DNA of 64,000 nucleotides from positions 1 to 64,000 of the forward strand of contig CAUYUJ010000199.1 of NCBI GenBank assembly GCA_963575745.1. Direction: 5' to 3'. Under the pieces are notes generated by a model, which was not told the origin of the DNA, did no database searches, and saw only the letters and a list, made by a program, of their open reading frames with translations. Of the stretch, positions 9,061 to 28,900 are shown piece after piece. Position 1 is the first letter of the stretch. Each line of letters opens with the position of its first letter. The translations under genes and the position numbers were made by a program. The DNA is from Prorocentrum cordatum (Eukaryota).

Positions 9061-12000
9061 CGGCAATCCTGTCGTTCGATACTTCCTTGTGCTTTACCCT
9101 TCGCTGGGGTTCCACTGGCGGTCTCGCATCGGCGCAGCAAGGCGCGGGCATGTGTTTTCGAGGCGGGATGTCTTTAATTGTCCTCGGAGGAAGTGTTTGC
9201 AAGACCTCATTGGGCGGGATACCTGGGAATGGGAATAACGGACCCCGCTATAGAACAAGAGTCCCCCATGATGTGGATGGTTATCATGATGGTCGCATGC
9301 TTCGTGTGGGAACATGGCGCATGAGGGTAAAACGATTGTTGTTGTTATTGACATCTCAGTTCTGAAGAATAATTATTGTTGTTCCCCCCGCCCTGTGCAC
9401 ATGGTATTTGTGTCGATTGAAGTGCCCTTCCCGGGGCTCGCACGACCCTTTACAGCAGGAAGATTTTGGAGGCTCAAACTCTGTCGTTGACCCCCGTATT
9501 ACAACAACAACAACAATCAGTTTAACACTGTTCGCCCTTATCTGCTCGAGTGTCCAATAACGCGTATTTCCGAAACCCTCGATACCCGCCCTCTTCGTCT
9601 TCGATCAAAAACACCTCTTGGGAGGTATACCTTTCATCCATGCAGGCCGGGCCCCGGCAAGCGGCGGGGCGGCCGCGCACCGTCGGCCTGGCCAGCGGCA
9701 GCGCTGATCGGCGGGGCGGCCGCGGACCGTCGACCCGACCCCAAGAGGGACGGACAGGGGACCGACCACGACGACGACGACGACGTCGACGACGACGGCG
9801 ACGACGACGACGACGGCGACGACGAGCGAGAGCGAGAGCGAGAGAGAACGACAACAGGGCCACGAAGGACACGAAGTAGGCCACGAATGGCGACAGCGGG
9901 GACACGAAGGGAACGCGTATGGGGCCACGAAGAGCGCGAACCAGCGGGGGCCACGAAGGGTAGATAATGCGGGGCCACAGAACGCAACGATGGGGCCAAT
10001 GAGGGTAGCAACTGGGCCACGTAGAACGTTGAGGGGACCACAAACGGCGACAGCGGGGCCGCGAAGGGCATGCACATGGGGCCACAACGGGTGCGACTCT
10101 TGGGTGCCTGGGTGTCGGGAGCGCGGCGCTTGAGCAAATTGCAGGAAATTCCCGCGCAAGGGCGTTATTCTTAATAAATTGCAGGCAAGTCTCCAGCGAG
10201 AGCGCGACTCCAGAGCGCCGGGAGAGCGATTCCTGAATAAATTGTAACGAAGTCCCAAGCGAGAGCGCGAATCCTGACTGAAATGCGAGAGAGTCTCGGG
10301 CGGGAGCGGGGGTCCTGGCTAAATTGTGAAGAAGTCTCAGGGGGGAGCCGTTGTTGTTGTGACCCGGGGGCCAGGCTTAGTTTGAACATGAAGATTTTCC
10401 TTGAGAAACAAACAGGGTGCGAGCGTCGAGGGGCGCATTTTGATTTTGAGAAACATCAGTATGCATTGGTGGGGGGGGATCAACAATTATTTTTTTCAGA
10501 AGTGAGAGCTTCACAACAACAACAACAACTTCCGCTTAGTATTTCCTCACAAGTTATTGAAGAATCGCGCTCTCGTTTGGGACCTCCTGGCAACTTCCAC
10601 CGATTCGCGGTTCCCGCTGGATACTCCTGACAATTGGTTGCAGAATCGCGTTCTCGGTTGGGACTTCCTCGCAATGTACCACCCAACCGTTTCGCTTGAT
10701 ATTTCTTCGGAGTGTATTCCGGTTCCGGTCCTTGACACTCAGGAATCGCGCCTTCCGCTACATATTGCCTGGCGGTTTAAGAAGCAGGACTCACGCTTCA
10801 ACGACCCCCCCGTTCGACCCGCCCGTCGGGGCCTGCCCGCCCAACGAGTCCGTTAATGACTGCAATCGCCGCTCGTTGCCCTTCGCCCGCCGTCGGTGCC
10901 CTTCGCTGCCCGTACTGGTTCCGCGGTCGCCTTCGCTCGCTGCCCTTCGTGGCCCCGTTGCTGTCCTCGGTGGCCCCGCATTATTTGCCCTTCGTGGCCC
11001 CCGCTCGCACGCCCCCGTCGTGGCCCCATACGCATGCCTTTCGTAGCCCTGCTGTCGCCCTTCGTGGTCCCTGTCGCTGCCCTTCGTGGCCCCTTTGCTG
11101 CCCTCAGTGGCCCCGCTGTCGCCCTTTGTGGCCCTGTACGCAAATGCCCGTCGTGGCCCCCGCTCGCTCGCGCCCGCGAACATGTCTCGCGCGCCTGAAT
11201 ATCGGACCCTGAAACGCAAGTCGTGCAGATGATGCCCGTTCGGGTGACCATGGCTGAGATGGGCTTTGCAGCGGAGCTACACGGAGCGAGGTCCGCGGAG
11301 TGGGAACTTCGGAAAGATGGCGAGGGGAATGGCGACGATTATGGGAAGGATAATGCGGACAGGAGGATGAGGCGGAGGAGAAGGAGGAGGGGGAGAAAGA
11401 GAAGGGGGGGCAGGAGGAAGGGGAAGAGGAGGAGGACGACAAAAGGGAAAAGGAAGGGCAGGAGGAAGAGGACGGAGGAGAGAGAGGAACAGGAGGATGA
11501 GGGGGAGGACAAGGTACGCTGCAGCCTCCCATGCCATGAAACATCGGATGACTTTCGGGCTGCCCCGCCACCGTGTGTCGGGTTGTGGGTCTGGGCCTTC
11601 ATGGGGAGCTCTTGCGGCTCTCTGCCCGACCTCTTCCCGAGGACCGTTTCATGGGGGCCCTTTCACCCCCCTGTCCTCGTGACAGCAGTTGTGAGGCTTC
11701 GCCGGGCGTGCTCTGGGCCCCTGCGGCGCTTCCTTGGGGCCTCTTGGGTGCCTGATGCATCGCAGGGGCGTCTGGAGAGCTCGTGGGTGCACTTGGTGGC
11801 GGTGAACTCGAATTGTCGGTCCTGGCTCCCCCTCCTGGGGCGCCTCTGGGGCCGTCTGGGGCCTTTCCTGCTGTTTTTTTGTTGGGTCGGTCTTGGGCGC
11901 CAGAGGCGCCGTTTTCAACGCCGCGGAGGCCGAAGAGTCGTGTGTAGTGTTTTCCAATCGGAATTGGACGAATTTTGATGTTCGGGGCCATCTTGGGAGG

Positions 12001-12114
12001 CTTCTGAGAGGCTTTGTCAAGCGTCCTGAAGCGTCCGGTTTGGGGTCCCGGGGGGGATGATGGGAGGGGGAATCGAACCTCTCACGCCTGGAGACCCACA
12101 AGGGGTCGGCGGAT

Positions 12115-12503
12115 TTCATGGACGCCCGACGCGGTGGAGCCTGGAACCCTCCGCAGCGGTTCCGCCACAGCGGTCGTGTTCATGATTTTCGGTGGTCCAG
12201 TGGTCATTCCTCCTCGTGCTCGCCCTCGCTCTCTTCGTCCTCGTCCTTGTGCTTCTCTTCCTCCTCGTTGTCCTCATGCTCCTCCTCGCTATCCTCACGT
12301 TCGCCACGTCGTCCTCGTCAGCGACTCCTCGTTGTCCTCGCTTGCCTTTCCTTCTTCGCCCAATACGCCCCACTAGACTACAGCGGCGCTTCCCATTCTT
12401 GTCCGATCAGGCTTCATGGACGCCCGACGCGGTGGAGCCTGGGACCCTCCGCGGCGGTTCCGCCACAGCGGTCGTGTGCATGATTCTCGGTGGTCCAGTG
12501 GTC
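12115..12503 (+). repeat. Pair of ~90-bp direct repeats flanking a CCT-rich spacer
   Basis: TTCATGGACGCCCGACGCGGTGGAGCCTGG...GGTGGTCCAGTGGTC at 12115-12205 and 12413-12503. Confidence 0.85.
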
Positions 12504-12697
12504 GTGCACATCACTTCCTGCGCCGCGCGGCACCTGCGATTCGCATGGGCCCGCAGACCTCTCCTCCCATCGGCGAGCCCGCCGGCTCCACAGCAGCAGC
12601 CGCGCTGGCAGGAGCTGGGGCCCGATGGCTGCCAGGAAGGCTCCCGGCTTGCCGAGATCTCACCACAGGCTCACAAGTTGGCAGCGACACGTTTAGG

Positions 12698-12832
12698 CCT
12701 CAGTGGGCCCTGGAAACGACAGGGCCTTTTTTTACCGGTTCCGTTCTGCCGTTTATTAACCGGCTCCGACGCCGTTTTTTTACCCAGAGGTCCCTCATGT
12801 TCGTTTTTCGGACATGAGTGCCATGTTCATTT
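12698..12832 (+). repeat. Left bipartite terminal inverted repeat
   Basis: Outer ~45 bp (12698-12743) pair with 22589-22636; inner TACCCAGAGGTCCCTCATGTTCGTTTTT...CCATGTTCATTT pairs with 22421-22473. Confidence 0.85.
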
Positions 12833-13067
12833 GTAATGAACATGGCATCATGATCGCCATGTTCGTTTTTGAACATGACGTAACGCGTTTGCACACAACG
12901 CGGTCTGAACGGCACGAGTGCCATTCGTTCTTGCCGCGGCTGTCCGCCGCGCACACGATCAGCTTGATCGACGGGCTTACGGGCCCGACGTTTACGGCAT
13001 GCATGCAAGCAGAAAAATCGGGGCTAGGATCCAGTCCAACGCCGATTCGAATCTAGGAGGAGGAGGA

Positions 13068-13099
<32 letters not shown>

Positions 13100-13746
13100 G
13101 AGGAGGAGGAGGAGGAGGAGGAGGAGGAGGAGGAGGAGGGATATCGAGGATCGGGGATCGATCGAGGGTCGGAGGAAGAGGGGAAGGAGGAGGAGGAGCC
13201 TCGAGGAGGAGGAGGAAAAGGAAGAGGAAAGGAGGGGAGAAGAGGGAGGAGGAGGACGGGGAGGAGGAGGAGGAGGAGGAGGAGGAGGAGAATGAAGAGG
13301 GGGAGAAAGGGAAGGAGGAGGAAGATTGGGAGAGGCGGCAAACGATCAGAATTGTTCAAACTTCTCTGACATGCGATTTCGGACCAAGGGCGAGTGGTCT
13401 TGGGGGAAAGGGAGGAAGGCAGCGGCAGCAGCAGCAGCAGCAAGAAGAGAAGGAGGAGGCGAAGGAGGAGGAGGAGGACAGGGGTGGACCTGGGACCCCG
13501 CTTTTACTATGTCCTTGAAGTCTCGAGCGGGGTTCGGCGGTGGCGTGCCGCAGGCTTGTCCATAGATCTTGGGAATCGTGCAATACCCCCTATAACCTGT
13601 GTCTCGATTCTTATGGCGTGTTACCTGAATCAGAGTGGAAGTAACCCAGATGAAACACTGCGGAGATCATTGTGGGCCAGATGTGTTCAGCCAGGGCCCT
13701 ATGGGGATCTTTTTTTCTTTTTGGAGGCTCACGCTCCTGGCGCCGC

Positions 13747-15915
13747 TCAAAACCACATCTCTGTGGGCAGTGCGTGTTCAGTCTGGGCGAGGTGAAACTT
13801 GGCGAACAATCTTCGCTCAAAGGTAAGTCTATGGCAACGCGCGGCTATGTGCACAATTGTTTTGTTTAAGCCTTCATCGGAATATGAATGATATGCCCTT
13901 GGGTTCCCTTTGAATGCAGAGTCAATTGAAGAATGTACGAATCCATGATGCTTGGGTTTCACTGGAACTCCCGCCTGCTGAGCAAAACGATTGTGCGCCA
14001 GTGAACAACGAACCAACAGCTCAGACGCTGCTATCGGTAGGAGCCTTGTGTGTGCAGCGACTGTACCCATCCAGGTCTCAATGGCCTCGCCAGCCTGGAT
14101 CAGAGCACCCGCGTCAGTTATTTCAAACAAGCGCTCGCGGAACTGCCTCAACATCTTCAACACGTATGGGAAAAAATGCTTCGTTTCAGCAGCTTTGAGG
14201 CTCAAGGACGGGTCATCGTACTGCCCCAACATACTCGGCACCAAGCGTCCAACACGCGTGATGCCTCCTCTCCTCTCGGGCGGCAGTGTCCTCGGGAGCG
14301 ATTGAAAATCAATTGTCACCTCTTTTTCTGCGCCCCTCCCCCAGGACCCCAGATGATATGTCCAAATGTCATGTGCTGCGTGCGCACCACATGCAATTTG
14401 GACCCCCTCCTCAAACACAACACTAGATAGTGGGTGGCTAATGTTTCAGGTGCTGAGCGGTCCTAGTGTATTCGGGATACCATCTGTGAAGGCCTGCGGT
14501 AAGGGACAACACTGTTTGCCTCATTTTTTCTCGTCGGGTTGTTGCACCAGAATTAAACACACCAATTTCGCTCATGTACCAAATCGAAGTCCCCAAATAG
14601 TCTTGCAGCACTCCAAGATGCACCGTGTGTAGGATGTCAATCCCTATACAGTCTAGCCCAATGCCAAGATACAATACGAACAATGGGTGCCTCCTGCTGG
14701 CCATGATAGGTTTTTGAGATCTCCAAAATAGAACTATGCACGGAAACTTGGTAATACTCTCAAATGCCATTGTGTGAGGGAGTTGGCAGGATGGTTCCAA
14801 ACGATCACCCTGACGCAACAGAGTGTCCCCGACCTTGATGTCACGCGATAACACCCTACCCTTCTGTTTTGGTTTGCTTTCTAGTGCGGACCTGATTTCA
14901 AAATGACTACCGCGATCTGGGATGGAAACCCATATCTCGCACGACGTGCAATATTTATCGTAATCATCTTGTGTTTTTTCTGCCACGTGTTCACGTCGAG
15001 CGAATTAAAGTCCTTCTTTTGAATATGGCATTTGAAACAACAATGGAAGTTCGCACTCCAAGATGTTAAGCCCCACCGCTGAACTATTTCAGCCCAGTCA
15101 CCAATAATATCAAGAACCACGACCCTAAAACCTAAAGGCTTTCCACTCTTGAGTGCGCGGCCCCCATCTGAGAACAACCAGTCGGCCCCGTCGTGCCTCG
15201 CAGAGGGCCAGCGCCCCTGAGCGAGAGCCTCTAAGCTCCACTTGACAAATTCAAAAAATGAGAACAGCGAGTCCCAACCCCCGCAGCCGCAGTTGCAGAA
15301 GTCCGACTTTCGGACTGAAAAACATAAATGTCTGAAGGCACTGTTGATAAACCGCACAGTGAAGGCCAGCACGCTATCCCGTGACTGATATTCAGACGCG
15401 TCTACATATAAAACCAACGGGATCGTCGCACATCTTTCTTCGTTCGCAAGCCCGACAATAAGGGGATGCTTCTCGAAACATTCGACCCACTCTCTTCCAG
15501 AAATCGCATCTCTCCAAGCTGTTCGAATTTCAGGGTGGGCCTCCAATTCTCTTGCCAAGGCTTCGTGGGGTGGCATAGTACAAGACTCAACCATTTCAAT
15601 ATCACCAGCATATTTTGAATACATCGGAACTTTGATGCGGTACAGTTTCTCGTCTTCCTTAGCGAACCCGAGCGCCCGGTCTAGTTTTCTCTGGAAGTGG
15701 CCCGAGGGGCTCTCGGGGGGTAATCCGTATTTCCTCGCTTCTCGCACCCCAGCTTCAGCAGCATAGTGACATAAGATACAAGCCCTTCGGGCGCTGATCT
15801 CGCCTGCCAAATACGGTTCAATGATCTCTTGAACAAAGAGCTCCCCAGGATTCGGGCCAGGTGGTCCGTCCCCAGCGTCCCAAGGGGGGACATCCCATTC
15901 AGCATGTCGCTTCAT
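13747..15915 (-). CDS. DDE transposase of the CMC (CACTA/EnSpm/Mirage/Chapaev)/Plavaka type, ~665 aa reconstructed with one intron and one homopolymer frameshift
   Basis: Joins ORFs 14881..15966 (from ATG 15915), 14438..14986 and 13747..14418. Motifs: PLVLYVD (first Asp), IIGDW (second Asp), CCFKC (C-x2-C), DILHTVHLG ([M/L]H), KPKHHGFVH (H-x3/4-H), NPRAYHSYSDE (Glu). The frame is restored by adding one A to the A6 run at 14974-14979. Confidence 0.75.
14291..14462 (-). other. Predicted 172-nt intron with a non-canonical GA donor (AG|GA...AG|G)
   Basis: Removing it fuses ...HRWYPEYTR to TLPPERRGGITRV in frame and removes the stop at 14438. AGGAC is repeated at both junctions. An alternative in-frame GT donor lies 18 nt upstream. 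Confidence 0.6.
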
Positions 15916-15925
15916 GAATGCAAGG

Positions 15926-15946
15926 TTTGGGCTAAAATGCTTCGGA
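15926..15946 (-). other. Spliced-leader-like 21-mer upstream of the transposase
   Basis: TCCGAAGCATTTTAGCCCAAA versus TCCGTAGCCATTTTGGCTCAAG (17/22 with one gap); ends 10 nt before ATG 15915. Confidence 0.6.
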
Positions 15947-16277
15947 ACCAATGGCGATAAATACACCGATGCATCCCCTCCACGCTTATACTCCCTCCTA
16001 CCTCCTCCGTCTTTGCCTCCTCCACATCCTCCTCCCTTCCTTTGCTGTGACTACCCAGCTTCGTCTGCGCTCAGTCCCTTGTGATCCCACGCTCTCTCCA
16101 ACGCCCCCCCCCCCGTCTCTCATTGTTCAGTTGCTACGTGGGCGGCGACGGTGTTCTTGGCATGGGGCGTTTTGTTAGGGGAGAAGGATGGCCGAGGGAG
16201 AGAAGGGAGGAGAGGTTTCCGATCGTTGATCATTGCGACATTCTGAATGGGATGTAGATTCAGTCCGAGTGCGAACC

Positions 16278-17009
16278 CTACGCCGAGCGATCCACGCCTG
16301 GCAGGACGCCTCGATTAAGATCTACAAGCGTTTGCACAAACTGCTCTGGGTAAGCGCTGGATGCAGTCGTGCGTTTTTTGTTGCCGTTGAAACGTCCCCT
16401 CTTGCATTTAGAAGTTAGGCGCTGCGAGGGTCTGGGCATGTTATGATACTTCGAACTTGCCAGGCGTTCAAACTGCGACGCCCATGCAGCATTCGTGAAA
16501 CCCACCTGCGGCTTGGGCGACGCGTGTCCGAAAACAAATATGTGCCACTTCACGCGCTGAGCCCCCGTGCGAGAAATGGCATCTTCGATTGCAGGATGGT
16601 GCCAAAATACTGAATTGGCAGGCTGTTCGACGAAGAACACGAGACCCAAATAGCTACACAGCATGATGTAATCGGCAACGAACTCTGCCACTCTATTGAA
16701 AATTATTGTCAATTTGTTGTCGTGCCCCAGAGGGTTCTTCAGCGTGCGCCCATGAGACCGTCTCGAAAGCCCAACGAAGTTCTTGCACGGAGGATCCAAA
16801 AGCACCAAACTGCCAGAGACACATCGCACGAGCATGGCCACAGCGCTGCGAACCCCTGGAGGCCGAGTAATATCATGAGATTTGTCGAGAGTTCCCGAGT
16901 CGAAAGCCCCGCAGTCCAGACCGCTGTTCTGCATGAAATCAGAGAAGGTTCCAACGCCAGCAAACCCATCTACCCCGTACAGGCGAGGCTGGTCGCGCGT
17001 GATCGCCAT
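16278..17009 (-). CDS. C5 cytosine DNA methyltransferase-like protein (~243 aa from ATG 17009)
   Basis: Motif I VDGFAGVG (FxGxG), AFD...HDIT, motif IV LDPPCKNF (catalytic PC), motif VI FFVEQPANS, SPKPQ..FTN and C-terminal SSAYPEQF, in canonical order in an uninterrupted ORF. Confidence 0.8.
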   Translation of the reverse strand: MAITRDQPRLYGVDGFAGVGTFSDFMQNSGLDCGAFDSGTLDKSHDITRPPGVRSAVAMLVRCVSGSLVLLDPPCKNFVGLSRRSHGRTLKNPLGHDNKLTIIFNRVAEFVADYIMLCSYLGLVFFVEQPANSVFWHHPAIEDAISRTGAQRVKWHIFVFGHASPKPQVGFTNAAWASQFERLASSKYHNMPRPSQRLTSKCKRGRFNGNKKRTTASSAYPEQFVQTLVDLNRGVLPGVDRSA

Positions 17010-17099
17010 CAGCTCAAACAGGAGGCAACCCCAGCCAACAGGAATGCATCCAGATAGCGGCATCCCAGTGAGCGTTTCGTTCCTCAGCGGCCCGAAAAT

Positions 17100-17120
17100 C
17101 TTGAGCCAGATGGCTACGGA
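17100..17120 (-). other. Spliced-leader-like 21-mer upstream of the methyltransferase
   Basis: TCCGTAGCCATCTGGCTCAAG, one deletion and one mismatch from DinoSL; 90 nt before ATG 17009. Confidence 0.85.
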
Positions 17121-17824
17121 GACCAAGGTGCCCTGGGACCATGGATTTGCAAGACATTCTCAATTGGGGGCGGCTCTCGATCTCATCCTCCGTCCCACTC
17201 GCAGTCTAATCCTCGAGGTCACAGCCCCTGAGGCGTTTTCGAAGGGCCTTCCCTCCCAAGCATTGCAAAAAAGAGAAGGGTGGGCATCAACTTCTCTCGG
17301 GTCAGCCGTTGCATACACGCGTGTTTCCAGCGTGCTAAGACGTTGGGAGAGAGCGAGACGCGAGAGTGGGAAAGGAAGCATGCACATGGACGACAATGGG
17401 GGGAGGGGGTGTGTGAGGATATGTTTCTTGTTTTGCAGGCTGCTTGCTTCCCCTCGCGCTGCTCCTGCAGCGCTGTAGCGTTCCAAACCAGCGAAAGTAC
17501 GTCGGGCCATCAGAAATTGCATCCGATTCAGAGCTGATTTGGACCTTGTCAAAAGTCATCGCAACCTCATCGAAAAAGTCATCGCTAACATGTAACACCT
17601 CATCGCATAACTCACCGGTCGTTTTTGAGGAATGTATCAGGGATTCTGCCTACCTCATCGCAAAGTCATCGCAAACCTCATCGGTGCGAACTCATCGCCA
17701 AACTCATCGGTCCGAAATCGCTCGAGGCCCTGGGAAAACCGGTCTGGATCCTAAAATTCTGGCAACCGCTGCAAACATTCGATATACCTGCGATGGCAGG
17801 CCCCCAGGCACACAGCTGTATGGC

Positions 17825-19118
17825 TCAAGCGGAAGTGGCCGAGTACTCCGAGTGCATCTTCGTGATCCTCTGGCACCTGGCGTGCACCTGATCGAGCAGC
17901 GGCTTCAGGATGGCGACGCAATTGCTGACCTGCTTCACGAACTCCGAGTCTCCAAGGCCCCTCTTGGTGTTGATAATGTTGTTGCTGATCGGAACTGTGT
18001 TCAGTATCGATGGGCACGCTGCCTTGGCTTTCCCCACGTCGTTTTTCAACTGAACTGCTATTGGTGAATCCTCGTGGAACCAGTCCTTCCAGATCGGATG
18101 CCTCTCGGTGGCCGCCTTCATAATCTCGTCGGCGCTCCCAATGCTGTTGCGCCAGCTGGCGAGGATATCCTTGAGGTCCCTCTCCGACTTGCTGACCATC
18201 TTCTTGTCTGGCGTGGCTGGCTCGAGATCATCGACGGGGCCCGCGTCAGCCGTAGGCTGCTTCCTCTTCTTATTTGGTCTCACAGGCTTCCTGGGGGCAT
18301 CGTCGTCATCGTCATCCTTGCCCAGTTCCTGCTTGATGCCCCACGCCCTCTCCAGAATCTCGGTGAAGCCCTCCTCCTGGTGAGCGAACCTCTGCCCGAG
18401 CTTGACGCAGTGCTTGGCTATGTTGATCCCCACTGTCTCGTCGTGCTCCTTGGCGATGATCTGCTTCAGCGAGCGGTAGTACGTCTTGCTCCAGTCGATT
18501 TGTCTGGTGATTTCTGTCTGCGTGATCTTCTCCCTGAGCACCTTCGCCTTAGTTTCTGCCCACTTTTTGCGGCGCTCCTTCTTCTCGTCTGGATCCATTT
18601 TCTGGTATTTCTCGAGCTCCTTGGCGTTGATCTTCTTTCTGAGCCACCTGTCGAAAGCTGAATACTCGGGAGTCCTCGCCACAACTCCATGCACGGATGC
18701 GTGCTCGTAGGTCCGAACCCGCTGATCCGTCTCTTGCTTGACCTCCCCAGCCTCTGCGGCTTCCTCCTGCAGCTCCTCTTCGATCTTCTCCAGGGTGCTC
18801 GGCTCCATGCCCGTCATGCTAGATGGGAAGGCGGCGTGCTCTTGGCCTTGGTCGCTGCCGTACTGACGATCGAGCTCGCTGACCTCCATGTGCTGTTGGC
18901 TGACGGCGCCTGGCTGCTGTCCAAGGTCACTCGGCTGCGGGATGGGCTGCGGGTTCACGGGCTCCGAGACAGAACCCGCGAGTGCGATGGCGGCGGCCCC
19001 GAAGTCGGCGTCGCCCGGTGGCGGCATCGGCAGTTGCGTTGAAGTCGCGGCGGAGGGTGCGGGCTCTGCTGGCGCTGCTGGCGCCGCCTGACCGCTGGCG
19101 CCGCCTGGCGTTGGCGCT

Positions 19119-19151
<33 letters not shown>

Positions 19152-19270
19152 GCGTTGGAGTCGTCTTCGATCTCGATGATGGGCGCCTGGGGATACACGA
19201 CCTCCACGAGGCCCGATGCTCCAAGCCGACGGCCCACGCCGCTGAAAGGCACGAAGCGACGATCGCCCAT
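17825..19270 (-). CDS. Transposon accessory protein (481 aa): SHP-box-like and SIM-like motifs, polyQ/Pro-rich linker, charged helical C-terminal region
   Basis: Long ORF, mostly non-repetitive, with GC-rich third positions; N-terminus FVPFSGVGRRLG...IIEIEDD; basic patch KPVRPNKKRK; SL-like sequence upstream. Confidence 0.7.
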
Positions 19271-19328
19271 GGCGAGGATTGCTCGACAACAATCGAGTGT
19301 CGGTTGTTTGGCTTGGCCCTAGGCTGAG

Positions 19329-19350
19329 TTTGAGCCAACATGGTTACGGA
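19329..19350 (-). other. Spliced-leader-like 22-mer upstream of ORF 17825..19270
   Basis: TCCGTAACCATGTTGGCTCAAA, 19/22 identical to DinoSL; 58 nt before the ATG. Confidence 0.8.
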
Positions 19351-20497
19351 AAGAGGGCGTTGACCGAAATTGGAAACGCAGTTTCAAGCTAGCAGGCGAC
19401 CGTTCGGGCAGGACCAGGACCATGCCGCCGATGAAAGCAACGCGGCGAAATTTCGGAAGGGAAGGGATCAGCAGCACAAAGGAGGAGGAGGAGGAGGAGG
19501 AGAAGGAGGAGGGGTACTCTCAAGAACAGTCCCAAAGTCTGTGCAATCCCACCCTTGTCAGATTTCGGCATACTGAATCTGGAATTCTTCGGGCGAAGCA
19601 CGTGAGATGAGATGGGGTCAACGCGTGATCCAAACGGGGCGGGTATTGAAACTTGATTGCTACCTCATTGCCACCTCGCTGCCCTGTTCAGTAAGCGACC
19701 CCCTATAATCGTTTCGCCTACCTTTGCATTTTTCGATTGGGTGAGAGGGCCTGGACGTTTTCACTCGCGTTGCTTGATTTCTGCGAGAGCCCCGAACACA
19801 AGCACTTCAAATGATCCCGATTTTGCTTACAAGGTTGCCTCTTTTGCTCATGCTGCTGCTGCCGCTGCTGCTCTGGCTCTTCCTCATCCTCCTCTGTCTC
19901 ATCCCTCTCCTCCCACCTTCCCTCCTCGCTGTCCTCATCCGCTTCCTCGTGTTCCTCCTTCCTTTCCTGATCCTCCTCGCTCCTAGCATGGTCCTCTTCT
20001 TTCCATCTGAACATGGTCACCGCCGTCCTTGTCGCGAGTTTCGTCGCCTGCCGCCCTCCCCAGCGCGCTCTCAAGACTGCAGTCGGAGGTGCAGGAAGGA
20101 CGGCGATCGAGAGGGGCCAGGAGGAGACGTGGGTAGCAGGATGGCCAATCTGAGAATTCAGGAGGTCCCTGGAAGAGCATCCGATACGTTCAAAAGGCCC
20201 TTGGGTCCGGCGTTTCAGGCATACTCCCCCACTCTCTTCCTCCATCTCTGTCCTCCCTCCTCCCCTCCCTTGCTACCCCTCTTCGATGCTGGTGGGTGCG
20301 ATGTGACTGGATGCGATGTCACTGGGCACATGCTTAACTTGTGACCAACTGCTGCTGAAAGGCAGTTCGAAGTGAATGCACGCAGTCGCAAGGCTGAGGA
20401 CAAACTGACATGCTCGAGAAAATATGGATGGGCATGCGTGGCGAAACTGGGACGCCCTGTACACTCTGCAGTGTAAAGCTCAACTGAAGTAGGAATA

Positions 20498-21868
20498 TCA
20501 CTCAACCGATTTGTGAAGTTTCTCGACCTCCTTTGCGCCGAACGCTTTCATGGCATCAAGGTCCTTGATTTTGTTACTGCACAACTTTTTAGCGATGCCA
20601 GTTGCAACTTTCACACGCGTCTCTTCCATGCCCCCTCGAAGAACTGGCACTGCAAACCTCTGTTTGCCGTTCACGGCGATGTAGATCAGGAAACCTGTGT
20701 GGTTCACGCTATTGGCGCGGTCCTTCTTCCGCTTCACGACGATGTTCTCTTTGCCCCACGCGCCCTCGAAGTACGTCACCGATCCGCGAGGGGCCCTCGG
20801 CCCGCGACCAGGGCTGGCTTGGACGTAAGCTAAGTCCTCGTGGAAGAAGTCTTGGATGATATAGGATCGGCCGCCGCTGAAATTGCCAACCACCCTGTCG
20901 TTGGCGGTGGGCTGCACGTCCGTCGTGAACTCCTTCGGTTCGCCTGGGAAGCGAAACCAAGCGCCCTGCCCTCTCTCGAATCCCGTCTCGGGCTGCTCTT
21001 CTCCTCTGGCACCTTCGGGATCCTCGAGCGGCGGGGGGCCTGCTGGCACTGCCGACGGCGCTGCAGCTGGTAGGTCGTCAGCTGGTTCTTCTTCTGAGCT
21101 TTGGACCTCCTGGCGGTACTTGTCGAAGACGAAGGACTTCGGCATGCTCAGGTCGTAGAACGTCTCGGTGCCTGACGGCCTCTTGGAAGCTGCAGCATGA
21201 GCTACAGCTGGACGCTTCTTGACCTCGGCGTCCTCTGCACCATCGGGCTGTCCGACTCCCTCTTCCTCAGGGTCCTCTTCCTCAGGGTCCTCTTCATGCT
21301 CTTCCTCCTCCTCACCTTCGTCTTCGCAGTCGTCCTCGTCGTTGGATGGGCCGCCCAACTCTTCCGCTGCAGCTGGCTTCTTGGACGTACATCCGCTGGG
21401 CCGTTTCATGGGTGGAGCCGTAGCCGCGGTAGCGCTAGCTGGCCTCTTGCGAACGGCGTCGGCCTGGCTCTCAGGTTGGACGAGGTCGCTGATCTTCGCC
21501 GCCCACGACGGAACAGAAACCTGGCCGCATGCCCTGTTGTAGTGGCAGATCATGGTGCGCAATCGTTTGGCCAGCTGGCATGAAGCGGCCTTGTAGTCTT
21601 GTTGCAGGTCCCATTGTTTTGCTTTGTACACGCCAATGATTGCTCCCTTGGCCGTGCCCTGCGTGAGCCTATCTAACCCACGAGCTTGCAGGAACGTGAC
21701 TGTAGCTACGATCAGATCTTTTTGCTTCTCGATCAGCGTCACCTCGAGCGGTTCCTGCTTCATCTGATCACCATATTGAACGAAACCTGTTGTTGTTGCG
21801 AAGGGGAGCAGGACGGACGTAAGCGCTGACGTAACAGTTGCATTCTCACCATCATCTGAATCTGACAT
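20498..21868 (-). CDS. Transposon accessory protein (456 aa) of unknown function; KRP[AS] repeats and an acidic tract
   Basis: Uninterrupted ORF with RKRPAS, MKRPSG, KKPAA, KKRPAV and SKRPSG around an E/D-rich tract; basic C-terminal domain. Confidence 0.7.
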   Translation of the reverse strand: MSDSDDGENATVTSALTSVLLPFATTTGFVQYGDQMKQEPLEVTLIEKQKDLIVATVTFLQARGLDRLTQGTAKGAIIGVYKAKQWDLQQDYKAASCQLAKRLRTMICHYNRACGQVSVPSWAAKISDLVQPESQADAVRKRPASATAATAPPMKRPSGCTSKKPAAAEELGGPSNDEDDCEDEGEEEEEHEEDPEEEDPEEEGVGQPDGAEDAEVKKRPAVAHAAASKRPSGTETFYDLSMPKSFVFDKYRQEVQSSEEEPADDLPAAAPSAVPAGPPPLEDPEGARGEEQPETGFERGQGAWFRFPGEPKEFTTDVQPTANDRVVGNFSGGRSYIIQDFFHEDLAYVQASPGRGPRAPRGSVTYFEGAWGKENIVVKRKKDRANSVNHTGFLIYIAVNGKQRFAVPVLRGGMEETRVKVATGIAKKLCSNKIKDLDAMKAFGAKEVEKLHKSVE

Positions 21869-21893
21869 TGGTAGAAGAATTCGAGCACGCCCC

Positions 21894-21914
21894 TATAAGC
21901 CAAAAAGCTATGCA
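21894..21914 (-). other. Degenerate spliced-leader-like sequence upstream of ORF 20498..21868
   Basis: TGCATAGCTTTTTGGCTTATA retains TAGC and TTTTGGCT; about 25 nt before the ATG. Confidence 0.45.
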
Positions 21915-22420
21915 CAGATGACGCTACAATCGTTGAAGGCGTGTTGCTTCAGATGCTCACCCGTCCCTACTCTTCCTCCTCCTCTCCAAACACAGCCTCA
22001 AGCATTCACCTGGGACCGCTAGATCAATGACTTTGGGGCCGAGGACCCCCACAACGATAACTGAGAGGATGTCTCTGGTATGACATTGGAACCGCACAAG
22101 ACTAGTTGAGAGGATGTCTCTAGCATAACGCGACGACGCATGATATTGATATATCCATTTTGGGACCCCTACAACAGTAATTGAGAGGAGTTCTCTAGCG
22201 GGATGCGCCTGAATGCGAATCGTGGATCATGTTCGTAAATTCAATGGTGTTTCGACCGTTGGTGTGTGATCTGTGTACAACGTGACGTGCGCATGCGCAT
22301 GTTTTAACAGCGATGTATGTGCGTATGTGTTTTGTTGTTTTGTTTTTGGTTATCGTCCCTTTTTGTGTGGAATCAGTTGCGCTCACCTAGCAATGTAATT
22401 CCAGGTTTTAAATCTCCCCA

Positions 22421-22636
22421 AAATGGACATGGTGATCCAGGTTCAAAAAACGACCATGAGGGACCTCTGGGTACCCGTTCCGTCGCCGTTTTTTGACCGG
22501 TTCCGGTTCCGGTTCCAATCCTGGAGCCGTTTCTTTGCCGTTTCTGGTCGCCTTTTTTTGTCGTTTCCATTTTCAAAGGGCATTTTTTCAGAAATGGTGG
22601 AAAAACGGCTCTGCCGTTTTCCGGGGCCCACAGAGG
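22421..22636 (-). repeat. Right bipartite terminal inverted repeat
   Basis: Reverse complement matches 12698-12743 and 12781-12832. Confidence 0.85.
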
Positions 22637-22968
22637 TTCAGGCCATTCTTCCGAGGAAGCAAGTCCACCCGCCCGCGAGCCCGCCCGCCCGCCCTCCCTC
22701 CCTCCCGCCCGCCCTCCCTCCCCCTCCCTCCCCCCCCCCCCCCCTCCCTCCCTCCTCCCTCCCCCCTCCCTCCCTTCTCCCTCCTCCCTCCCCCCTCCCC
22801 CCCTCCCCTCCCCCCTCCCTCCCGCTCTCCACGCCGCATTGTAGCAGTGGCGCGCCGAGGCGGGAGAGTGGATGGGCGGGTTTTCCCAGGAGGCTCTGAA
22901 GGTCTCCGGACCTCTGAGATGGCTTGCGAGCCTCCTCCGAAGCTGCAGGCGGTTTCAGCCACGTGCAG

Positions 22969-23110
22969 AGGGGGTCGGGGGAGGGGGGAGGGCTTCTTAG
23001 AAGCACCCCTGCTTTTTCGAAGGCGCGGGCCTTATCTGTAGATGTAAGGCCAGCGCCTTCTAAGAAGCAGGGGTGCTTCTAAGAAGCCCTCCCCCCTCCC
23101 CCCACCCCCT
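22969..23110. mobile_element. Near-perfect palindromic (hairpin) MITE-like element
   Basis: Arms of about 66 bp (22969-23034 and 23045-23110) with about 4 mismatches and a 10-nt loop; a diverged copy lies at about 34378-34505. Confidence 0.75.
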
Positions 23111-23385
23111 TGTGCGCGCCGCCAACGGTTTCTCAGAAGGGCGGAGGGCCTTGAAGAAGCCCCGCCAACTTCCGAGGCGGCCTGCCCCCTCTCACTCCCC
23201 CCCCCGCCGCGCCGCCGATCGCACTTTTGCGTCGCGGCACGGCAGAGGCGGTCCGCACGTGCGCTCGGGCAGAGCCGGGAGACGGCGTATATGCCGGGAG
23301 GCAGGAGGGGAAGGCGCAGCCGATCACACGGATGCGGCAACTCTCTAAGGGTGCCTTCGCAACCTCGTCTCCCAGCCCATCCTTA

Positions 23386-23540
23386 ATGGGCCAATTTTCA
23401 CCACCACTACCATGGGTAGGAGGGGGGAGAAGGGAGGATGGGGAGGTCCTCCTCCTCCTCCTCCTCCTCCTCCTCCTCTTCTTCCTCCTCCTCCTCCTCC
23501 CTATCCTGCCTATGGTAGTGGTGGTGGTAAATCGGCCCAT
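23386..23540. mobile_element. Small MITE-like element with ATGGGC...CACCACCACTACCAT inverted ends
   Basis: ATGGGCCAATTTTCACCACCACTACCAT pairs with ATGGTAGTGGTGGTGGTAAATCGGCCCAT; related ends at about 26442, about 26560 and 26708-26737. Confidence 0.65.
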
Positions 23541-23557
23541 CAGTCCTGACCCTTCGG

Positions 23558-25961
23558 CATGAAGGGGTCGGCTCGGTTCGGTTCGGTCCGGTTCTGCAGC
23601 CGGGTCGGTTTTGCTTGGCCGGTTCGGTTTGGCATCGGTCCGGTTTCGGCCGGTTCGGCTTGGGCCTGCCGCCGGTTCGGTTCGGTTCCAGTATTCGCGC
23701 AGTTGGGTCCGACCGGTTCGGTTCGGTTCGAGTGGCCGCTCCGGTTCGGTTCGGCCCGACGGGTCAGGTGCGACGTTGGGCGCCCCGTCTGCGTAAGCGA
23801 CGACCCAGTTTGAAAAAAAGGGAGGGAGGAGGACGAGGAGGAGGAGGAGGCGGAGGCGGAGGAGGGAGGGGAGGACGACGAGGAGGAGGAGAAGGAGGAG
23901 GAGGAGAAGGAGAAACGTGGAGGCGTGGAGGCGCGAGGCCCTCCAGCGACGTGCCCCGACGGGGGTCGCAGCCCCGAGGGGGGTCGCAGCCCCGAGGGGG
24001 GTCGCAGCCCCGAGGGGGGTCGCGCCCGCGAGGGGGGTCGCGCCCGCCAGGGGGGTCGCACCCGCCAGGGGGGTGGCGCCCGCCAGGGGGGTTGCGCCCG
24101 CCAGGGGGGTTGCACCCGCCAAGGGGGTTGCACCCGCCAGGGGGGTTGCGCCCGCCAGGGGGGTTGCACCCGCCAGGGGGGTTGCGCCCGCCAGGGGGGT
24201 TGCGCCCGCCAGGGGGGTTGCACCCGCCAGGGGGGTTGCGCCCGCCAGGGGGTTTGCACCCGCCAGGGGGGTTGCGCCCGCCAGGGGGGTTGCGCCCGCC
24301 AGGGGGGTTGCACCCGCCAGGGGGGTTGCGCCCGCCAGGGGGGTTGCACCCGCCAGGGGGGTCGCAGCCCTCTCAGGCGCTCCCGGCACGCCCCCAGGCG
24401 CTCCCAGGCGCTCCCTGGCGCTCCCAAGCGCTCCCAGGTACTCCCAAGCGCTCCCAAGCGCTCCCAGGCGCTCCCAAGCGCTCCCAAGCGCTTCCAGGCG
24501 CTCCCAGGCGCTCCCCGGCGCTCCCCGGCGCTCCCGGGCGCTCCCTGGCGCGTCCCGGCGCTCCCGGGCGCTCCCAAGCGCTCCCCGGCGCTCCTAGGCG
24601 CTCCCCGGCGCTGCCAGGGAGGTCGCAGCCCGCCAGGGGGGTTGCGCCCGCCAGGGGGGTTGCACCCGCCAGGGGGGTTGCGCCCGCCAGGGGGGTCGCG
24701 CCCGCCAGGGGGGTCGCGCCCGCCAGGGGTGTCGCAGCCCGCCAGGGGGGTTGCACCCGCCAGGGGGGTTGCACCCGCCAGGAGGGTTGCACCCGCCAGG
24801 GGGGTTGCGCCCGCCAGGGGGGTTGCGCCCGCCAAGGGGGTTGCGCCCGCCAGGGGGGTTGCACCCGCCAGGAGGGTTGCGCCCGCCAGGGGGGTTGCAC
24901 CCGCCAGGGGGGTTGCGCCCGCCAGGGGGGTTGCACCCGCCAGGGGGGTTGCGCCCGCCAGGGGGGTTGCACCCGCCAGGGGGGTTGCGCCCGCCAGGGG
25001 GGTTGCACCCGCCAGGGGGTTGCACCCGCCAGGGGGGTTGCACCCGCCAGGGGGGTTGCACCCGCCAGGGGGGTGCGCCCGCCAGGGGGGTTGCGCCCGC
25101 CAGGGGGGTTGCACCCGCCAGGGGGGTTGCGCCCGCCAGGGGGGTTGCGCCCGCCAGGGGGGTTGCACCCGCCAGGGGGGTTGCACCCGCCAGGGGGGTT
25201 GCGCCCGCCAGGGGGGTTGCACCCGCCAGGGGGGTTGCACCCGCCAGGGGGGTTGCACCCGCCAGGGGGGTTGCACCCGCCAGGGGGGTTGCACCCGCCA
25301 GGGGGGTTGCACCCGCCAGGGGGGTTGCACCCGCCAGGGGGGCCAATTGCGCCCGCCAGGGGGGTTGCACCCGCCAGGGGGGTTGCACCCGCCAGGGGGG
25401 TTGCGCCCGGGGGGGTTGCGCCCCAGGGGGGTTGCGCCAGGGGGGTTGCGCCCACCCGCCAGGGGGGGTTGCGCCCGCCAGGGGGGTTGCACCCGCCGGG
25501 GGGGCTGCACCCGCCAGGGGGGTTGCGCCCGCCAGGGGGGTTGCACCCGCCAGGTGGGTTGCGCCCGCCAGGGGGGTTGCGCCCGCCAGGGGGGTTGCAC
25601 CCGCGAGGGGGGTCGCGCCCGCCAGGGGGGTCGCACCCGCCAGGGGGGGCGCACCCGCGAGGGGGGTCGCACCCGCCAGGGGGGTCACAGCCCGCGAGGG
25701 GGGTCGCGCCCGCCAGGGTGGTCGCATCCCGCCAGGGGGGTCGCAGCCCGCCAGAGGGGTTCGGTTCGGTTCCCGTCGGTTCGGTTCAGGGGCCGCCCGG
25801 TTCCGGTTCGGTTCCGGTTCTGGTTCGGTTCGGTCCTCGCCGGTTCGGTTCTGAATGAATTCGGTTCGGTCCGGTTCGGTTTTCTACGTTCCTGGTTTTG
25901 GACCGGTTCGGTCCGGTTCGGTCACGGTTCTCGGTTCTCGGTTCGGTGCGGTCCCTTCATG
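23558..25961. mobile_element. Non-autonomous TIR element (CATGAAGGG...CCCTTCATG) with a perfect CTTCGG target duplication, filled with minisatellites
   Basis: CTTCGG at 23552-23557 and 25962-25967; (GGTTC)n arrays inside both ends. Confidence 0.8.
23960..25755 (+). repeat. 18-bp minisatellite (TTGCRCCCGCCAGGGGGG)n interrupted by a 10-bp (GCGCTCCCAG)n block at about 24375-24612
   Basis: Read directly from the sequence. Confidence 0.95.
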
Positions 25962-28900
25962 CTTCGGGGGTGGACAGAACCCCCACCCTGACACGTCGAT
26001 TAGTGAATTTTCCGCTTTCGCTTCTCGAAGGGGCGCCGCGGCCGCCACTGTCCGGGCCTGCGCCCATCAGTTTCGGGCCCGAGTTCGTCTTCACTAAACC
26101 ACGTTTTGCTAACGGGGGTTCTGTCCATCCCCGATGCGGCAATTCTCCAAGGGTGCCTTCGCGCCCTTGGAGACCGGCCTGACGGAGGGGAGGAGGAGGA
26201 AGAGGAAGAGGAGGAGGAGGAGGAGGAGGAGGAGGAGGAGGAGGCACCCTCGCCTCCATGGGAGACCAGCCGATGCACCCACGTCTCCCAGCCCATCCTG
26301 ACCACTTGGCCCGGGGCCAGGCTGCCCAGCTCGGCTGCGGCTCGGGCGTTCCAGGGCCCTGCACATCCCGACCGCGCATCCTCGTGCTGCGCTGCACGCT
26401 GCCTCAGAGCGAGCGCCCCCTGGGAGGGAGGGGAGGAGGAGGATGGGCAAGTGTTCCACCACCACTACCATGTGCAGGTCGGGGGAGGGAAACGGGAGGA
26501 TGAGGAGGTCCTCCGCGAGCGCCCCCTGGAAGGGAGGGAGGGAGGGAGGGAGGAGGAGGATGGGCAAGTGTTCCACCACCACTACCATACGTAGGTCGGG
26601 GGAGAAGGGAGGATGAGGAGGTCCTCCTCCTCCTCCTCCTGCTCCTCCTCCTGCTCCTCCTCCTCCTCCTCCTCCTCCTCCTCTTCCTCTCCCTGTCTTT
26701 TCTACATCCGGTAGTGGTGGTGGAAAACGGGCCCATCAGAGGAGGGCCGTTACTTGCCTGAACTGTGTCCCTGTTCACAGTATTGGCATCACGTTGTCCC
26801 GATGCCGAGATTAAGGGTACGCCCAATTTCTGAAGGCACATCACTGAGATCGCCATCGCCATGGGCTTGTCAACCTTAGCAGGCATGGGGAAGGGGCCGA
26901 GGCTGGTCGGGAAGCGCAGCCGCTCCTGCCGGGCAGGAGGAGGGGACCTTGGAGGCCGAGCAGAAGAGCTCTGCGGCGCCAGGGCCTGCGTACCAGTATT
27001 CGACAGGCTAGTGCCTTGGATGCCGCCCGCGCTGCCTGTGGAGCCCACAGGGCAGAAGTCCCAAGAGCGGGACCTCCTCCTCCTCCTCCTCCTCCTCCTC
27101 CTCCTCCTCCTCCTCCTCCTCCTCCTCCTCCTCCTCCTCCTCCTCCTCTCCTCCTCCTCCTCCTCCTCCTCCTCCTCCTCCTCCCCCTCCTCCTCCTCCT
27201 CCTCCTCCTCCTCCTCCTCCTCCTCCTCCTCCTCAGCGTTGGCGGGCCACGGGCGGCCAAGGCCGCTGGCACGGGTGAGGCAGGAGCCGGGCGGAGGCTG
27301 GCAGAAGCCGCGGCTGCGACAGCGGAGCTCCGGGAAATGCTTCGGTGTCGTTCCACCAATCCCCATCCCCATCCCTATCCCTTTTCGAGACCCCCACCAA
27401 GTGACCCCCCCAGTTGGGGATACGCCCATCGAAACACGAATGGAACGAACGGCCTATATTTCAGAGGAGCATGAAATATTGATATTGATAGCTTTCAACA
27501 TTTCCAGGTTTTCCTGTTCTTCCGCGCGGGCTCCAGGGACGAATGGTCGAGCGCATTCCGTCGCGCAGGTTCTTTGCGTGATGTGCGCGGTGCATTTTCT
27601 GCGCATCGGAGCGCCCTCGCAGATTCCAAGCTGCATGCTGTGTTGCTCTTGGGGAGTCCTTGAGTCGCAGTTACCGTGGCGCTGTTTTTGAGGCGACCCC
27701 ATTCGAGTGCTGTTCGCGGGCGCAACGCGCGGCGCGCGCTGCGCCCAATCGCGCGCTGCGCGGTGCGTGAATCAGCCGGCCGCGCCCGTCGGACCGCCCG
27801 GAAATTATTTCTGGATTGTAGAATGTTTCAGAAAACGCTTCCGTTGTTTTGGCGCAAGCGGTTCTGGAATTTTTCAAAAAAGGAGCCCGGGAATTTTCAA
27901 AAAAACATAGTTTTGAGGGGTGGAATGCGCCCGCCTCGCATGACGTCGGAGGAATTCTGAAATCCGGAATTTTTCAAAATTGATTCTGGAATTTGTCAAA
28001 ATCGATCCCGGACTTGTTCAAAATCGATTCTGGGATTTTTCAAACAATAGGCCGGACATGTTCAAAAACCTTCCCCGGATTTTCCAAATTTTCCCCCGGA
28101 GAATTTGCCAGAGCCGCGCGTGATTTTACTTACCAGGTCTTTGGAATTCCGCATAGGCGCGCGGTGCGCGGCGGCGGGCGATGGGACGGTGCGCCACCGT
28201 CCCCCCGCGCTCGGCAACGAGAAGGGGGATCAGCAACTGCCAAATAGCCGTTTACGGGCGACCACTCGATTGCGAATGGGTGACCAACTGGCGACGCCAG
28301 TCAGAGTAGACAAGACTTCGACGCACAGTGTACCCCGTACGAGGCAGTTAGAAATCCCGGAATCCCCGGAACGTATCAATAGCACGCTGTGTCAATAGAT
28401 TTTGCTCGTCCTAATATCCACATCTAGGGGGTAAGCCGGCCATTGGGGCCCAGGCCACGCCGCTGGGAATGGGGATCGGTTGAACGATACTCAATGTTTT
28501 TACCCTTCTGGGAAGCAGGTCGTTTACTTCGTAGTGCGTTGAGCTTGATTCCGGGCATTTTTTTCCCCCCCGGGAGGGCCGTTTTAGCAGCCACGGATTC
28601 GCCAACCTTCGCCGTAGTCCCTGTGGATTTCGCGGGGCATCATGGCGAGCGCCACGGCGAATCGGTCCTCGCCGAGCCCAGGGCCTTCCTGGGCGCCCCA
28701 AGGACGTCATGTGACGATCACTGGGCTTCTGGGAGCTCCCAGGGCCGGAGGGCGCACGACACTGTGAATTGGCCAGTAGGTTCTTCTCGTGTCGACGCGG
28801 CAGCGACCCTGCCGTGGGCGTTCGAGGTGGATCGTCGCCAAGTGCCCATGTAATCGTCAAGTTCCTCACGCTTCGCGTATCCCCACCGGCGCCAGCCCCC

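Follow-up and report, generated by a model that had tools for sequence, protein, structure and literature searches.

The SHP box is a short linear motif by which cofactors of the segregase Cdc48/p97 engage its N domain. The proteins known to carry one are cellular Cdc48/p97 cofactors and few in number: the ELM paper counts 17 SHP-box instances and enters the pattern only as a VCP ligand (PMC10767929). The consensus is given as F-x-G-x-G-x-x-h, and in plant PUX proteins the upstream Phe is missing (PMC8181520). In human Ufd1, the box (BS1) reads 225-FRAFSGSGNRL-235. Its residues F225, F228, N233, and L235 touch the p97 N domain at the Nc lobe, conservation is strict at G230 and G232, and F225, F228, and L235 are conserved across Ufd1, p47, and DVC1; Derlin-1 and DVC1 likewise bind p97 through SHP boxes (PMC5042407, available excerpt). 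Here, we describe a candidate box of this type in the dinoflagellate Prorocentrum cordatum, at the N-terminus of a protein that we call ORF481. The window analyzed is the whole stretch of 64,000 nucleotides at positions 1 to 64,000 of contig CAUYUJ010000199.1 (assembly GCA_963575745.1), and ORF481 is a coding sequence of 481 amino acids on its minus strand (17825–19270, stop codon included). The motif heads an orphan multi-copy family without any other known domain, a family that is probably linked to mobile elements.

The translation of ORF481 opens MGDRRFVPFSGVGRRLGASGLVEVVYPQAPIIEIEDDSNAEQQQQQQQQQ, with the ATG at 19268–19270. Directly behind the residues MGDRR lies the box itself, FVPFSGVGRRLG (residues 6–17; 19220–19255, minus strand), followed by the hydrophobic stretches LVEVV and IIEIEDD. 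The stretch MGDRRFVPFSGVGRRLGASGLVEVVYPQAPIIEIEDDSNAE thus heads the protein, and ten Gln come directly after it (residues 42–51; 19118–19147, minus strand), within a low-complexity, disordered linker that spans residues 18 to 128 or so. The peptide FVPFSGVGRRL (residues 6–16) carries F1, F4, G6, G8, and L11, that is, all five key positions of human Ufd1, and it fits the F-x-G-x-G-x-x-h pattern of the SHP-box ligands of the Cdc48/p97 N domain (ELM LIG_VCP_SHPBox_1). The original prediction, made on residues 1–37 (19160–19270), had proposed an SHP box followed by a SUMO-interacting motif (SIM); it gave the letters and coordinates of both correctly. It also depended on a start codon upstream of the box. 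The ATG of ORF481 stands in the context GCCATGG and is preceded, 16 codons upstream, by an in-frame TAG, and the second in-frame Met is residue 82. Because the homologues begin with a Met 3–6 residues ahead of the motif, the true start of ORF481 is placed upstream of it as well, and translation is predicted to begin at Met1.

The protein is real and belongs to an uncharacterised family that exists in multiple copies. An exhaustive phmmer search of 1.84 billion representatives returned 15 homologues at E<=1e-3, six of them at E<=1e-10 and the best at 4e-43. The named members are three P. cordatum proteins that are at least 90% identical to one another and lie on three contigs; one of them also carries the label Polarella glacialis. 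Copies in dinoflagellate assemblies include the loci of CAK0823439.1, CAK0849508.1, and CAK0832648.1. The other members come without names, as calls on contigs about 1 kb long (ENA, JGI, Logan, and NCBI). Word-index homologue searches brought nothing new with ORF481 as query, only P0011 with the N-terminal alignment, and only P0007 with the C-terminal one. Among metagenome contigs, two alignments gave 122 and 131 pattern matches with no confirmed locus; among viral contigs, there were 600 pattern matches with the protein and 22 and 56 with the alignments, again with none confirmed. The ESM Atlas held no usable match for ORF481. No Pfam family was found for ORF481 (E<=0.1) or for six homologues. 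One further sequence, P0018 (EukProt, Pyramimonas sp. CCMP1952), is a 92-aa transcriptome fragment that by eye is identical to a P. cordatum protein; it reflects either transcriptome cross-contamination or a shared element, and it hints at transcription of the family.

The architecture is simple: an N-terminal SHP box, an unconserved and disordered linker of about 110 residues, and two conserved, all-helical domains. AlphaFold2 (AF2) with the family alignment gives a predicted local distance difference test score (pLDDT) below 50 at residues 1–17 and 20–128, so that the motif, as modelled, sits in a disordered tail, where linear motifs are usually found. The central helical domain (residues 157–317; 18320–18802, minus strand) is conserved, carries the motifs ARTPEYS.F and RFAH, and has a pLDDT mostly of 80–96; the C-terminal helical bundle (residues 356–480; 17831–18205, minus strand) is conserved too, at about 90–98. 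These confident domains, together with homologues that extend over them, establish that the gene is real. Their kind of fold was not matched: Foldseek with the ORF481 model returned no PDB match and no BFVD match at E<=0.001, and a wide VIA-align search returned generic helical bundles only (best Z 8.7, below the meaningful level for helical bundles). The linker between the domains is both acidic and basic (pLDDT below 50 at residues 316–344). It holds the patch RKPVRPNKKRK (residues 327–337; 18260–18292, minus strand), with KKRK at residue 334, and this patch resembles a nuclear localization signal; a nuclear location of ORF481 would be suggested by this resemblance only. The other basic run in the protein, RRKK, lies inside a folded helix.

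The closest relatives of the N-terminal motif, in terms of sequence profile, are proven SHP boxes. We compared a 24-position profile built from four N-termini with 177,635 distinct PDB sequences at E<=10 and obtained 11 matches. In eight of these, the profile aligns with the SHP box of a Cdc48/p97 cofactor. The two best are p47 structures (7r7s_I, E = 0.0014; 9mpu_B, E = 0.0017), in which both p47 boxes are aligned, and the third is an Arabidopsis CDC48A–PUX5 fusion (9v9o_A, E = 0.015), aligned over the stretch NPFQGVGRTLGASG. Four more belong to Ufd1, namely the peptide 5c1b_V (E = 0.73) and the chains 9yrc_H, 9yw2_I, and 11sy_P (E = 1.8–1.9), and one is UBX1 (6opc_Z, E = 1.9). The remaining three are two DNA-helicase fragments and one kinesin-like protein.

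Conservation within the family was assessed on the eight Met-started sequences, ORF481 included, that reach upstream of the central domain. Three have the full motif, one distant member has the core only, one has a decayed remnant, and three have none. All five positions are kept in ORF481, in P0002 (FLPFQGQGYKLG, residues 4–15), and in P0006 (FSAFSGRGWRLG, residues 5–16). In P0019 the core FEGVGHKL (residues 7–14) is kept, and Pro replaces the first Phe; this is a full-length protein of 425 aa from a distant cluster, and its folded domains share 24% identity with those of ORF481 (BLASTP E = 1e-16). P0011 has the remnant PFDEAGETAQRL, in which the spacing from F to L (F...RL) is the same and the glycines are lost; its end appears to be a frameshifted tail. 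P0009, P0014, and P0015 have no motif. The P. cordatum models are uninformative on this point, since they start past the motif region, apart from P0017, which is a fusion with the preceding gene. The SHP part of the original prediction is thus conserved in half of these N-termini, and its SIM part only partly.

Among the four carriers, the island is 5–8 of 12 residues identical without gaps, whereas the linkers behind it (76–162 residues) align as shuffled sequences do. Global-alignment identity is inflated by composition, and a shuffle control was therefore used for the linkers: the observed identity is 0.24–0.39 against 0.23–0.31 after shuffling, and across the six pairs 3 to 70 of 100 shuffles attain the observed score. 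In keeping with this, the BLASTP alignment of ORF481 with P0002 covers residues 164–473 only. Since the island is conserved while the adjoining linkers align like shuffles, it appears to be under selection, at least in intact-looking members.

How often would such a motif arise by chance? In a six-frame translation of the 64-kb window with 200 block shuffles, the pattern F..F.G.G..L occurs once, at the ORF481 site, against 0.09 expected; for F.G.G..LG the count is one (0.28 expected), and for the short F.G.G..L it is three (1.9 expected). Taken alone, this count is only suggestive, as the original prediction was free to notice any motif. Recurrence says more. The core falls within the first 13 start positions of a protein with a per-protein chance of about 6e-5 to 1.6e-4, and it also occurs at residues 4–16 of three homologues; therefore, the observation is far beyond chance. 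With all five positions, the recurrence in homologues, and the profile matches to proven SHP boxes, the proposed SHP box at the start of ORF481 stands, and we regard it as genuine, well supported as far as sequence goes.

We favor, with modest confidence, a reading in which this box docks onto host Cdc48/p97 at the Nc lobe of its N domain. The box would form a short beta-strand on the lobe, as the Ufd1, p47, and PUX5 boxes do; the two helical domains would serve to hold a partner; and ORF481 would be either an adaptor that brings Cdc48 to this partner or a client that is handed to Cdc48. Our confidence in docking is kept at this level because half of the available N-termini lack the motif and because binding is predicted from sequence.

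Several observations weigh against docking. Only four of the eight N-termini have the core; P0009, P0011, P0014, and P0015 were called as genes on short contigs (about 1 kb), which makes their starts unreliable, and their misses nonetheless stand. A lone Ufd1 SHP peptide binds weakly, with a dissociation constant of 221 uM (PMC5042407, excerpt). Most adaptors add a second module, either a UBX-type domain or a VCP-interacting motif (VIM), and ORF481 has no UBX-type domain (Pfam, E<=0.1). Nor does it contain a VIM or a VCP-binding motif (VBM) under the pattern R-x5-AA-x2-R or a loose VIM pattern; its only basic runs are the two named above. Since no second N-domain-binding module (UBX, UBX-like, VIM, or VBM) was found, ORF481 would fall outside the bipartite p47 and Ufd1–Npl4 subgroup of adaptors. 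Avidity through oligomerising helical domains is possible.

The copy in the window also shows signs of decay that count against the docking reading. X1, a DNA sequencing run of a related strain, holds 73% of the sampled words of 13500–22000, and its listed contig pieces over this region differ from the window at about 1 base per 100. At 18392–18393 (minus strand), X1 has 36 extra bases which, with the codon phase checked, encode the conserved block PFIxWDxxGKVW in the phase of ORF481. Every other homologue that covers the region has this block, with two residues missing in P0013, whereas the window copy has none of it: a 12-residue in-frame deletion in the conserved folded core, just before RFAH. 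Among the listed differences, four of six ORF481 substitutions relative to X1 are non-synonymous; 172 further differences lie over 13500–22000. The window copy may therefore be a slightly decayed, or decaying, member of its family, with its N-terminal motif intact. Short pieces of 13500–22000 were also found in three metagenome runs, X2–X4 (two from studies labelled marine and freshwater, one unlabelled), at about 90–100% identity and mostly at 96–100%; none of these runs covers 19180–19463. The runs listed with matching sequence include no RNA run.

The alternative that survives best, somewhat unlikely in our judgment, holds that something other than Cdc48 keeps the island conserved, such as contact with the helical domains of ORF481 itself, with proteins of the element, or with another host factor, and that its likeness to SHP boxes is convergence on a beta-turn of Phe, Gly, and Leu. 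It draws on the fact that the motif is fixed at five positions only, on the three unrelated proteins among the 11 profile matches, on the negative result for a second p97-binding module by Pfam and by the VIM and VBM patterns, and on the AF2 model, in which the motif region is a weak hairpin of low confidence (residues 14–16 and 22–24). What tells against convergence is the profile search, where the best three matches and eight in total are proven SHP boxes. The upstream Phe and the trailing Gly, superfluous for a generic turn, match Ufd1 and p47, and the pattern has no function in ELM other than that of a VCP ligand, as far as the accessible text goes (PMC10767929).

If docking is taken as the working reading, the known cofactors give a measure of how ORF481 compares. 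p47 (NSFL1C; Shp1 in yeast) consists of UBA, SEP, and UBX domains and binds p97 via two modules. It shares with ORF481 a linear F-x-G-x-G-x-x-L-G motif in a disordered stretch; in contrast to p47, ORF481 has no Pfam domain, places its motif at the extreme N-terminus, and continues into unrelated helical domains. Ufd1 agrees with FVPFSGVGRRL at the five key positions, the upstream Phe included, as well as at positions 5 (Ser) and 10 (Arg). Ufd1 acts as a heterodimer with Npl4, whose UBX-like domain gives a second contact (PMC5042407, excerpt), whereas no Npl4-like partner or domain was seen for ORF481. PUX5 is also close in its letters: its 14 aligned residues, given above, are nearly those of the ORF481 string FSGVGRRLGASG. 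As in P0019, the upstream Phe is missing from PUX proteins, and PUX5 is a UBA-SEP-UBX protein (PMC8181520); beyond the motif, it has no homology to ORF481. Were ORF481 to bind Cdc48, it would represent a new class of adaptor in a lineage with highly unusual chromatin, and recruitment of the host segregase by eukaryotic mobile DNA would become testable.

Whether mobile DNA is involved depends on the surroundings of the gene. Every ORF between 21868 and 13747 is on the minus strand. The next ORF upstream encodes 456 aa (20498–21868), and its C-terminal 150 residues match the N-terminal part of P. cordatum P0017 (E = 1e-20, 30% identity). Since P0017 joins a homologue of this ORF to a homologue of ORF481, the gene pair and its order are conserved across distant relatives. 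The deposited P0017 model (CAK0832648.1) fuses the two homologues directly, without the SHP motif; deposited annotations such as this one can hide the motif in annotated proteomes.

Downstream lies an ORF of 261 aa (16278–17063), in which we noted by eye the strings FAGVG (motif I), PPCKNF (IV), and VEQP (VI), reminiscent of C5-methyltransferases; it has no match in Pfam, even at E<=10, in the PDB, or, by tblastn, in phage genomes. Beyond it are three abutting, Cys-rich ORFs in different frames (14881–16050, 14438–15004, and 13747–14445; together 13747–16050) that look transposase-like by eye and are possibly a broken or intron-bearing transposase. A feature search of the Atlas linked them to unnamed clusters at 0.93–0.94 and to a Plavaka transposase cluster at 0.89, below the trust level of the tool; Pfam gave no match even at E<=10, and phmmer against the PDB gave chance matches only. 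Relative to the window, X1 has a 17-nt indel at 15014, in this transposase-like region, and part of the X1 contigs have a 1-nt insertion at 14524, within the Cys-rich ORFs; such frame-changing variants, which separate near-identical copies, are as expected of a decaying or intron-bearing mobile gene. We considered whether the indel at 15014 joins two of the transposase-like ORFs and rejected this, as a stop at 15005–15007 follows at once. AF2 modeling of a neighboring ORF of 344 aa, run without an alignment, was unusable (pLDDT 35).

The candidate boundaries are a pair of inverted repeats of about 53 nt, whose left arm (12781–12833, plus strand) pairs with the right arm (22421–22473, minus strand) as an 83% blastn self-match; each is a possible terminus of an element. 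All the same-strand ORFs fall within the 9.7-kb unit that the pair would bound. Similar CCGTT-rich repeats flank the pair on both sides, no clear target-site duplication was seen by eye next to the repeats, and blastn found no second copy within the window. Long inverted repeats in 12000–23500 are mostly simple GGA/TCC repeats. Just inside the right arm, at 22030–22200, three tandem units of about 60 nt can be made out by eye (GGGACCCC.ACAAC..TAA.TGAGAGGA..TCTCT...); these are possibly subterminal binding sites.

From these surroundings we infer that ORF481 is likely the accessory protein of a transposon, a role that is not established. The original prediction had taken this role as given and had taken the downstream 261-aa ORF for a DNA methyltransferase (DNMT). 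Neither label holds at that strength: behind them are motifs seen by eye, a weak Atlas lead, and one 53-nt inverted repeat, among neighbors for which searches of Pfam, the PDB, and phages came up empty.

A second alternative, also unlikely and a little more doubtful to us than convergence, is that ORF481 belongs to the host: an expanded cellular family that serves as a lineage-specific Cdc48 cofactor, outside any mobile element. The neighbors match no transposase or methyltransferase family, the repeat evidence consists of one 53-nt pair at 83% without a clear target-site duplication, and the window has no second copy. Dinoflagellate genomes, moreover, contain many multi-copy, same-strand arrays of host genes. 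Against a host gene stand the three near-identical copies on three P. cordatum contigs; the order with the upstream ORF, conserved at about 30% protein identity; the indels and frame-breaking variants between the window and X1; the patchiness of the family, whose members are often truncated or decayed in assemblies; and the weak lead to a Plavaka transposase for the downstream ORF.

The boldest version of the mobile-element reading is that dinoflagellate DNA transposons encode their own Cdc48/p97 adaptor, one that would bind the nucleoprotein complex left after transposition, or host chromatin and silencing proteins that are possibly SUMO-marked, and pass them on to the host segregase. We think this improbable as it stands, and roles in transpososome disassembly, in the clearance of DNMT adducts, or in anti-silencing are speculation. 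A parallel exists in phage Mu, where the host AAA+ unfoldase ClpX takes apart the stable transposase–DNA complex. The likeness is one of functional analogy only, a mobile element in need of an AAA+ unfoldase of its host. Mu bears the tag on its transposase and employs bacterial ClpX, whereas in the window a separate protein carries a Cdc48 motif and the transposon is a probable one. If true, a transposon-encoded adaptor would be the eukaryotic counterpart of the dependence of Mu on ClpX and the first p97 cofactor encoded by a mobile element. In the literature searched, we found no mobile-element or viral SHP-box protein (the viral part was judged by the titles listed) and no link between a transpososome and p97.

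A further proposal, a sub-case of docking to Cdc48, is that ORF481 reads two signals at once, as Wss1 does, and brings Cdc48 to SUMOylated chromatin proteins. We see a small chance of this. The SIM pattern, psi-psi-x-psi or psi-x-psi-psi with an acidic flank, fits LVEV/VEVV in the first hydrophobic stretch (LVEVV, residues 21–25; 19196–19210, minus strand) and IIEI followed by EDD in the second (IIEIEDD, residues 31–37; 19160–19180, minus strand), and in the latter an acidic tail follows a textbook psi-psi-x-psi core. Three of the four SIM-like cores in ORF481 fall in residues 21–34, directly past the SHP box. Similar stretches lie at the same distance past the box in P0002 (VPVVI, within VPVVIDVE) and in P0011 (VPLLE), and in P0019 the stretch SIELSSQSDAEQE, with SIEL and a tail of Ser and acidic residues, aligns with IIEIEDD in a second BLASTP high-scoring segment pair (E = 0.029). 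Precedent exists as well: Wss1 holds an SHP box, a VIM, and two SIMs, so that the pairing of SHP and SIM invoked by the original prediction is in print (PMC4559962, available excerpt).

Against the dual reader, the four cores in ORF481 compare with 4.1 expected from composition, P0006 has no core in its first 60 residues by the same regular expression, and Pfam detects neither a WLM/SprT protease domain nor anything else in ORF481. By count the SIM-like cores are indistinguishable from chance, and their conservation is only partial, which leaves the SIM reading weak; IIEIEDD is compatible with a SIM and could equally extend the docking strand. Wss1 and SPRTN (DVC1) resemble ORF481 in joining an SHP box to motifs that read SUMO or ubiquitin, with chromatin-bound targets (PMC4559962, excerpt), although the SIM of ORF481 is putative. 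They differ from it in the WLM/SprT metalloprotease domain, which Pfam does not detect in ORF481, and in the VIM. As ORF481 has no Pfam family, it would not be a member of the Wss1/SPRTN group.

Finally, that the motif arose by chance in a non-functional or non-coding ORF is close to refuted: spurious long ORFs abound in this GC-rich window, and one occurrence against 0.09 expected is not decisive alone, but ORF481 has homologues down to E = 4e-43 over two folded domains that AF2 models with confidence, the motif has the same N-terminal place in three further proteins, and the profile search finds proven SHP boxes.

The rest of the window has a eukaryotic look. Its GC content ranges from about 0.43 to 0.78 per 2 kb, it contains 100 N, and many of its ORFs are of low complexity; a Pfam search of 57 other long ORFs in the window returned low-complexity noise only. 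A block at 24594–25727 is 78% GC and open in all frames (23531–25991 in several of them), and it is built of short tandem units that in one frame read as GATPLA and PPWRxQ repeats.

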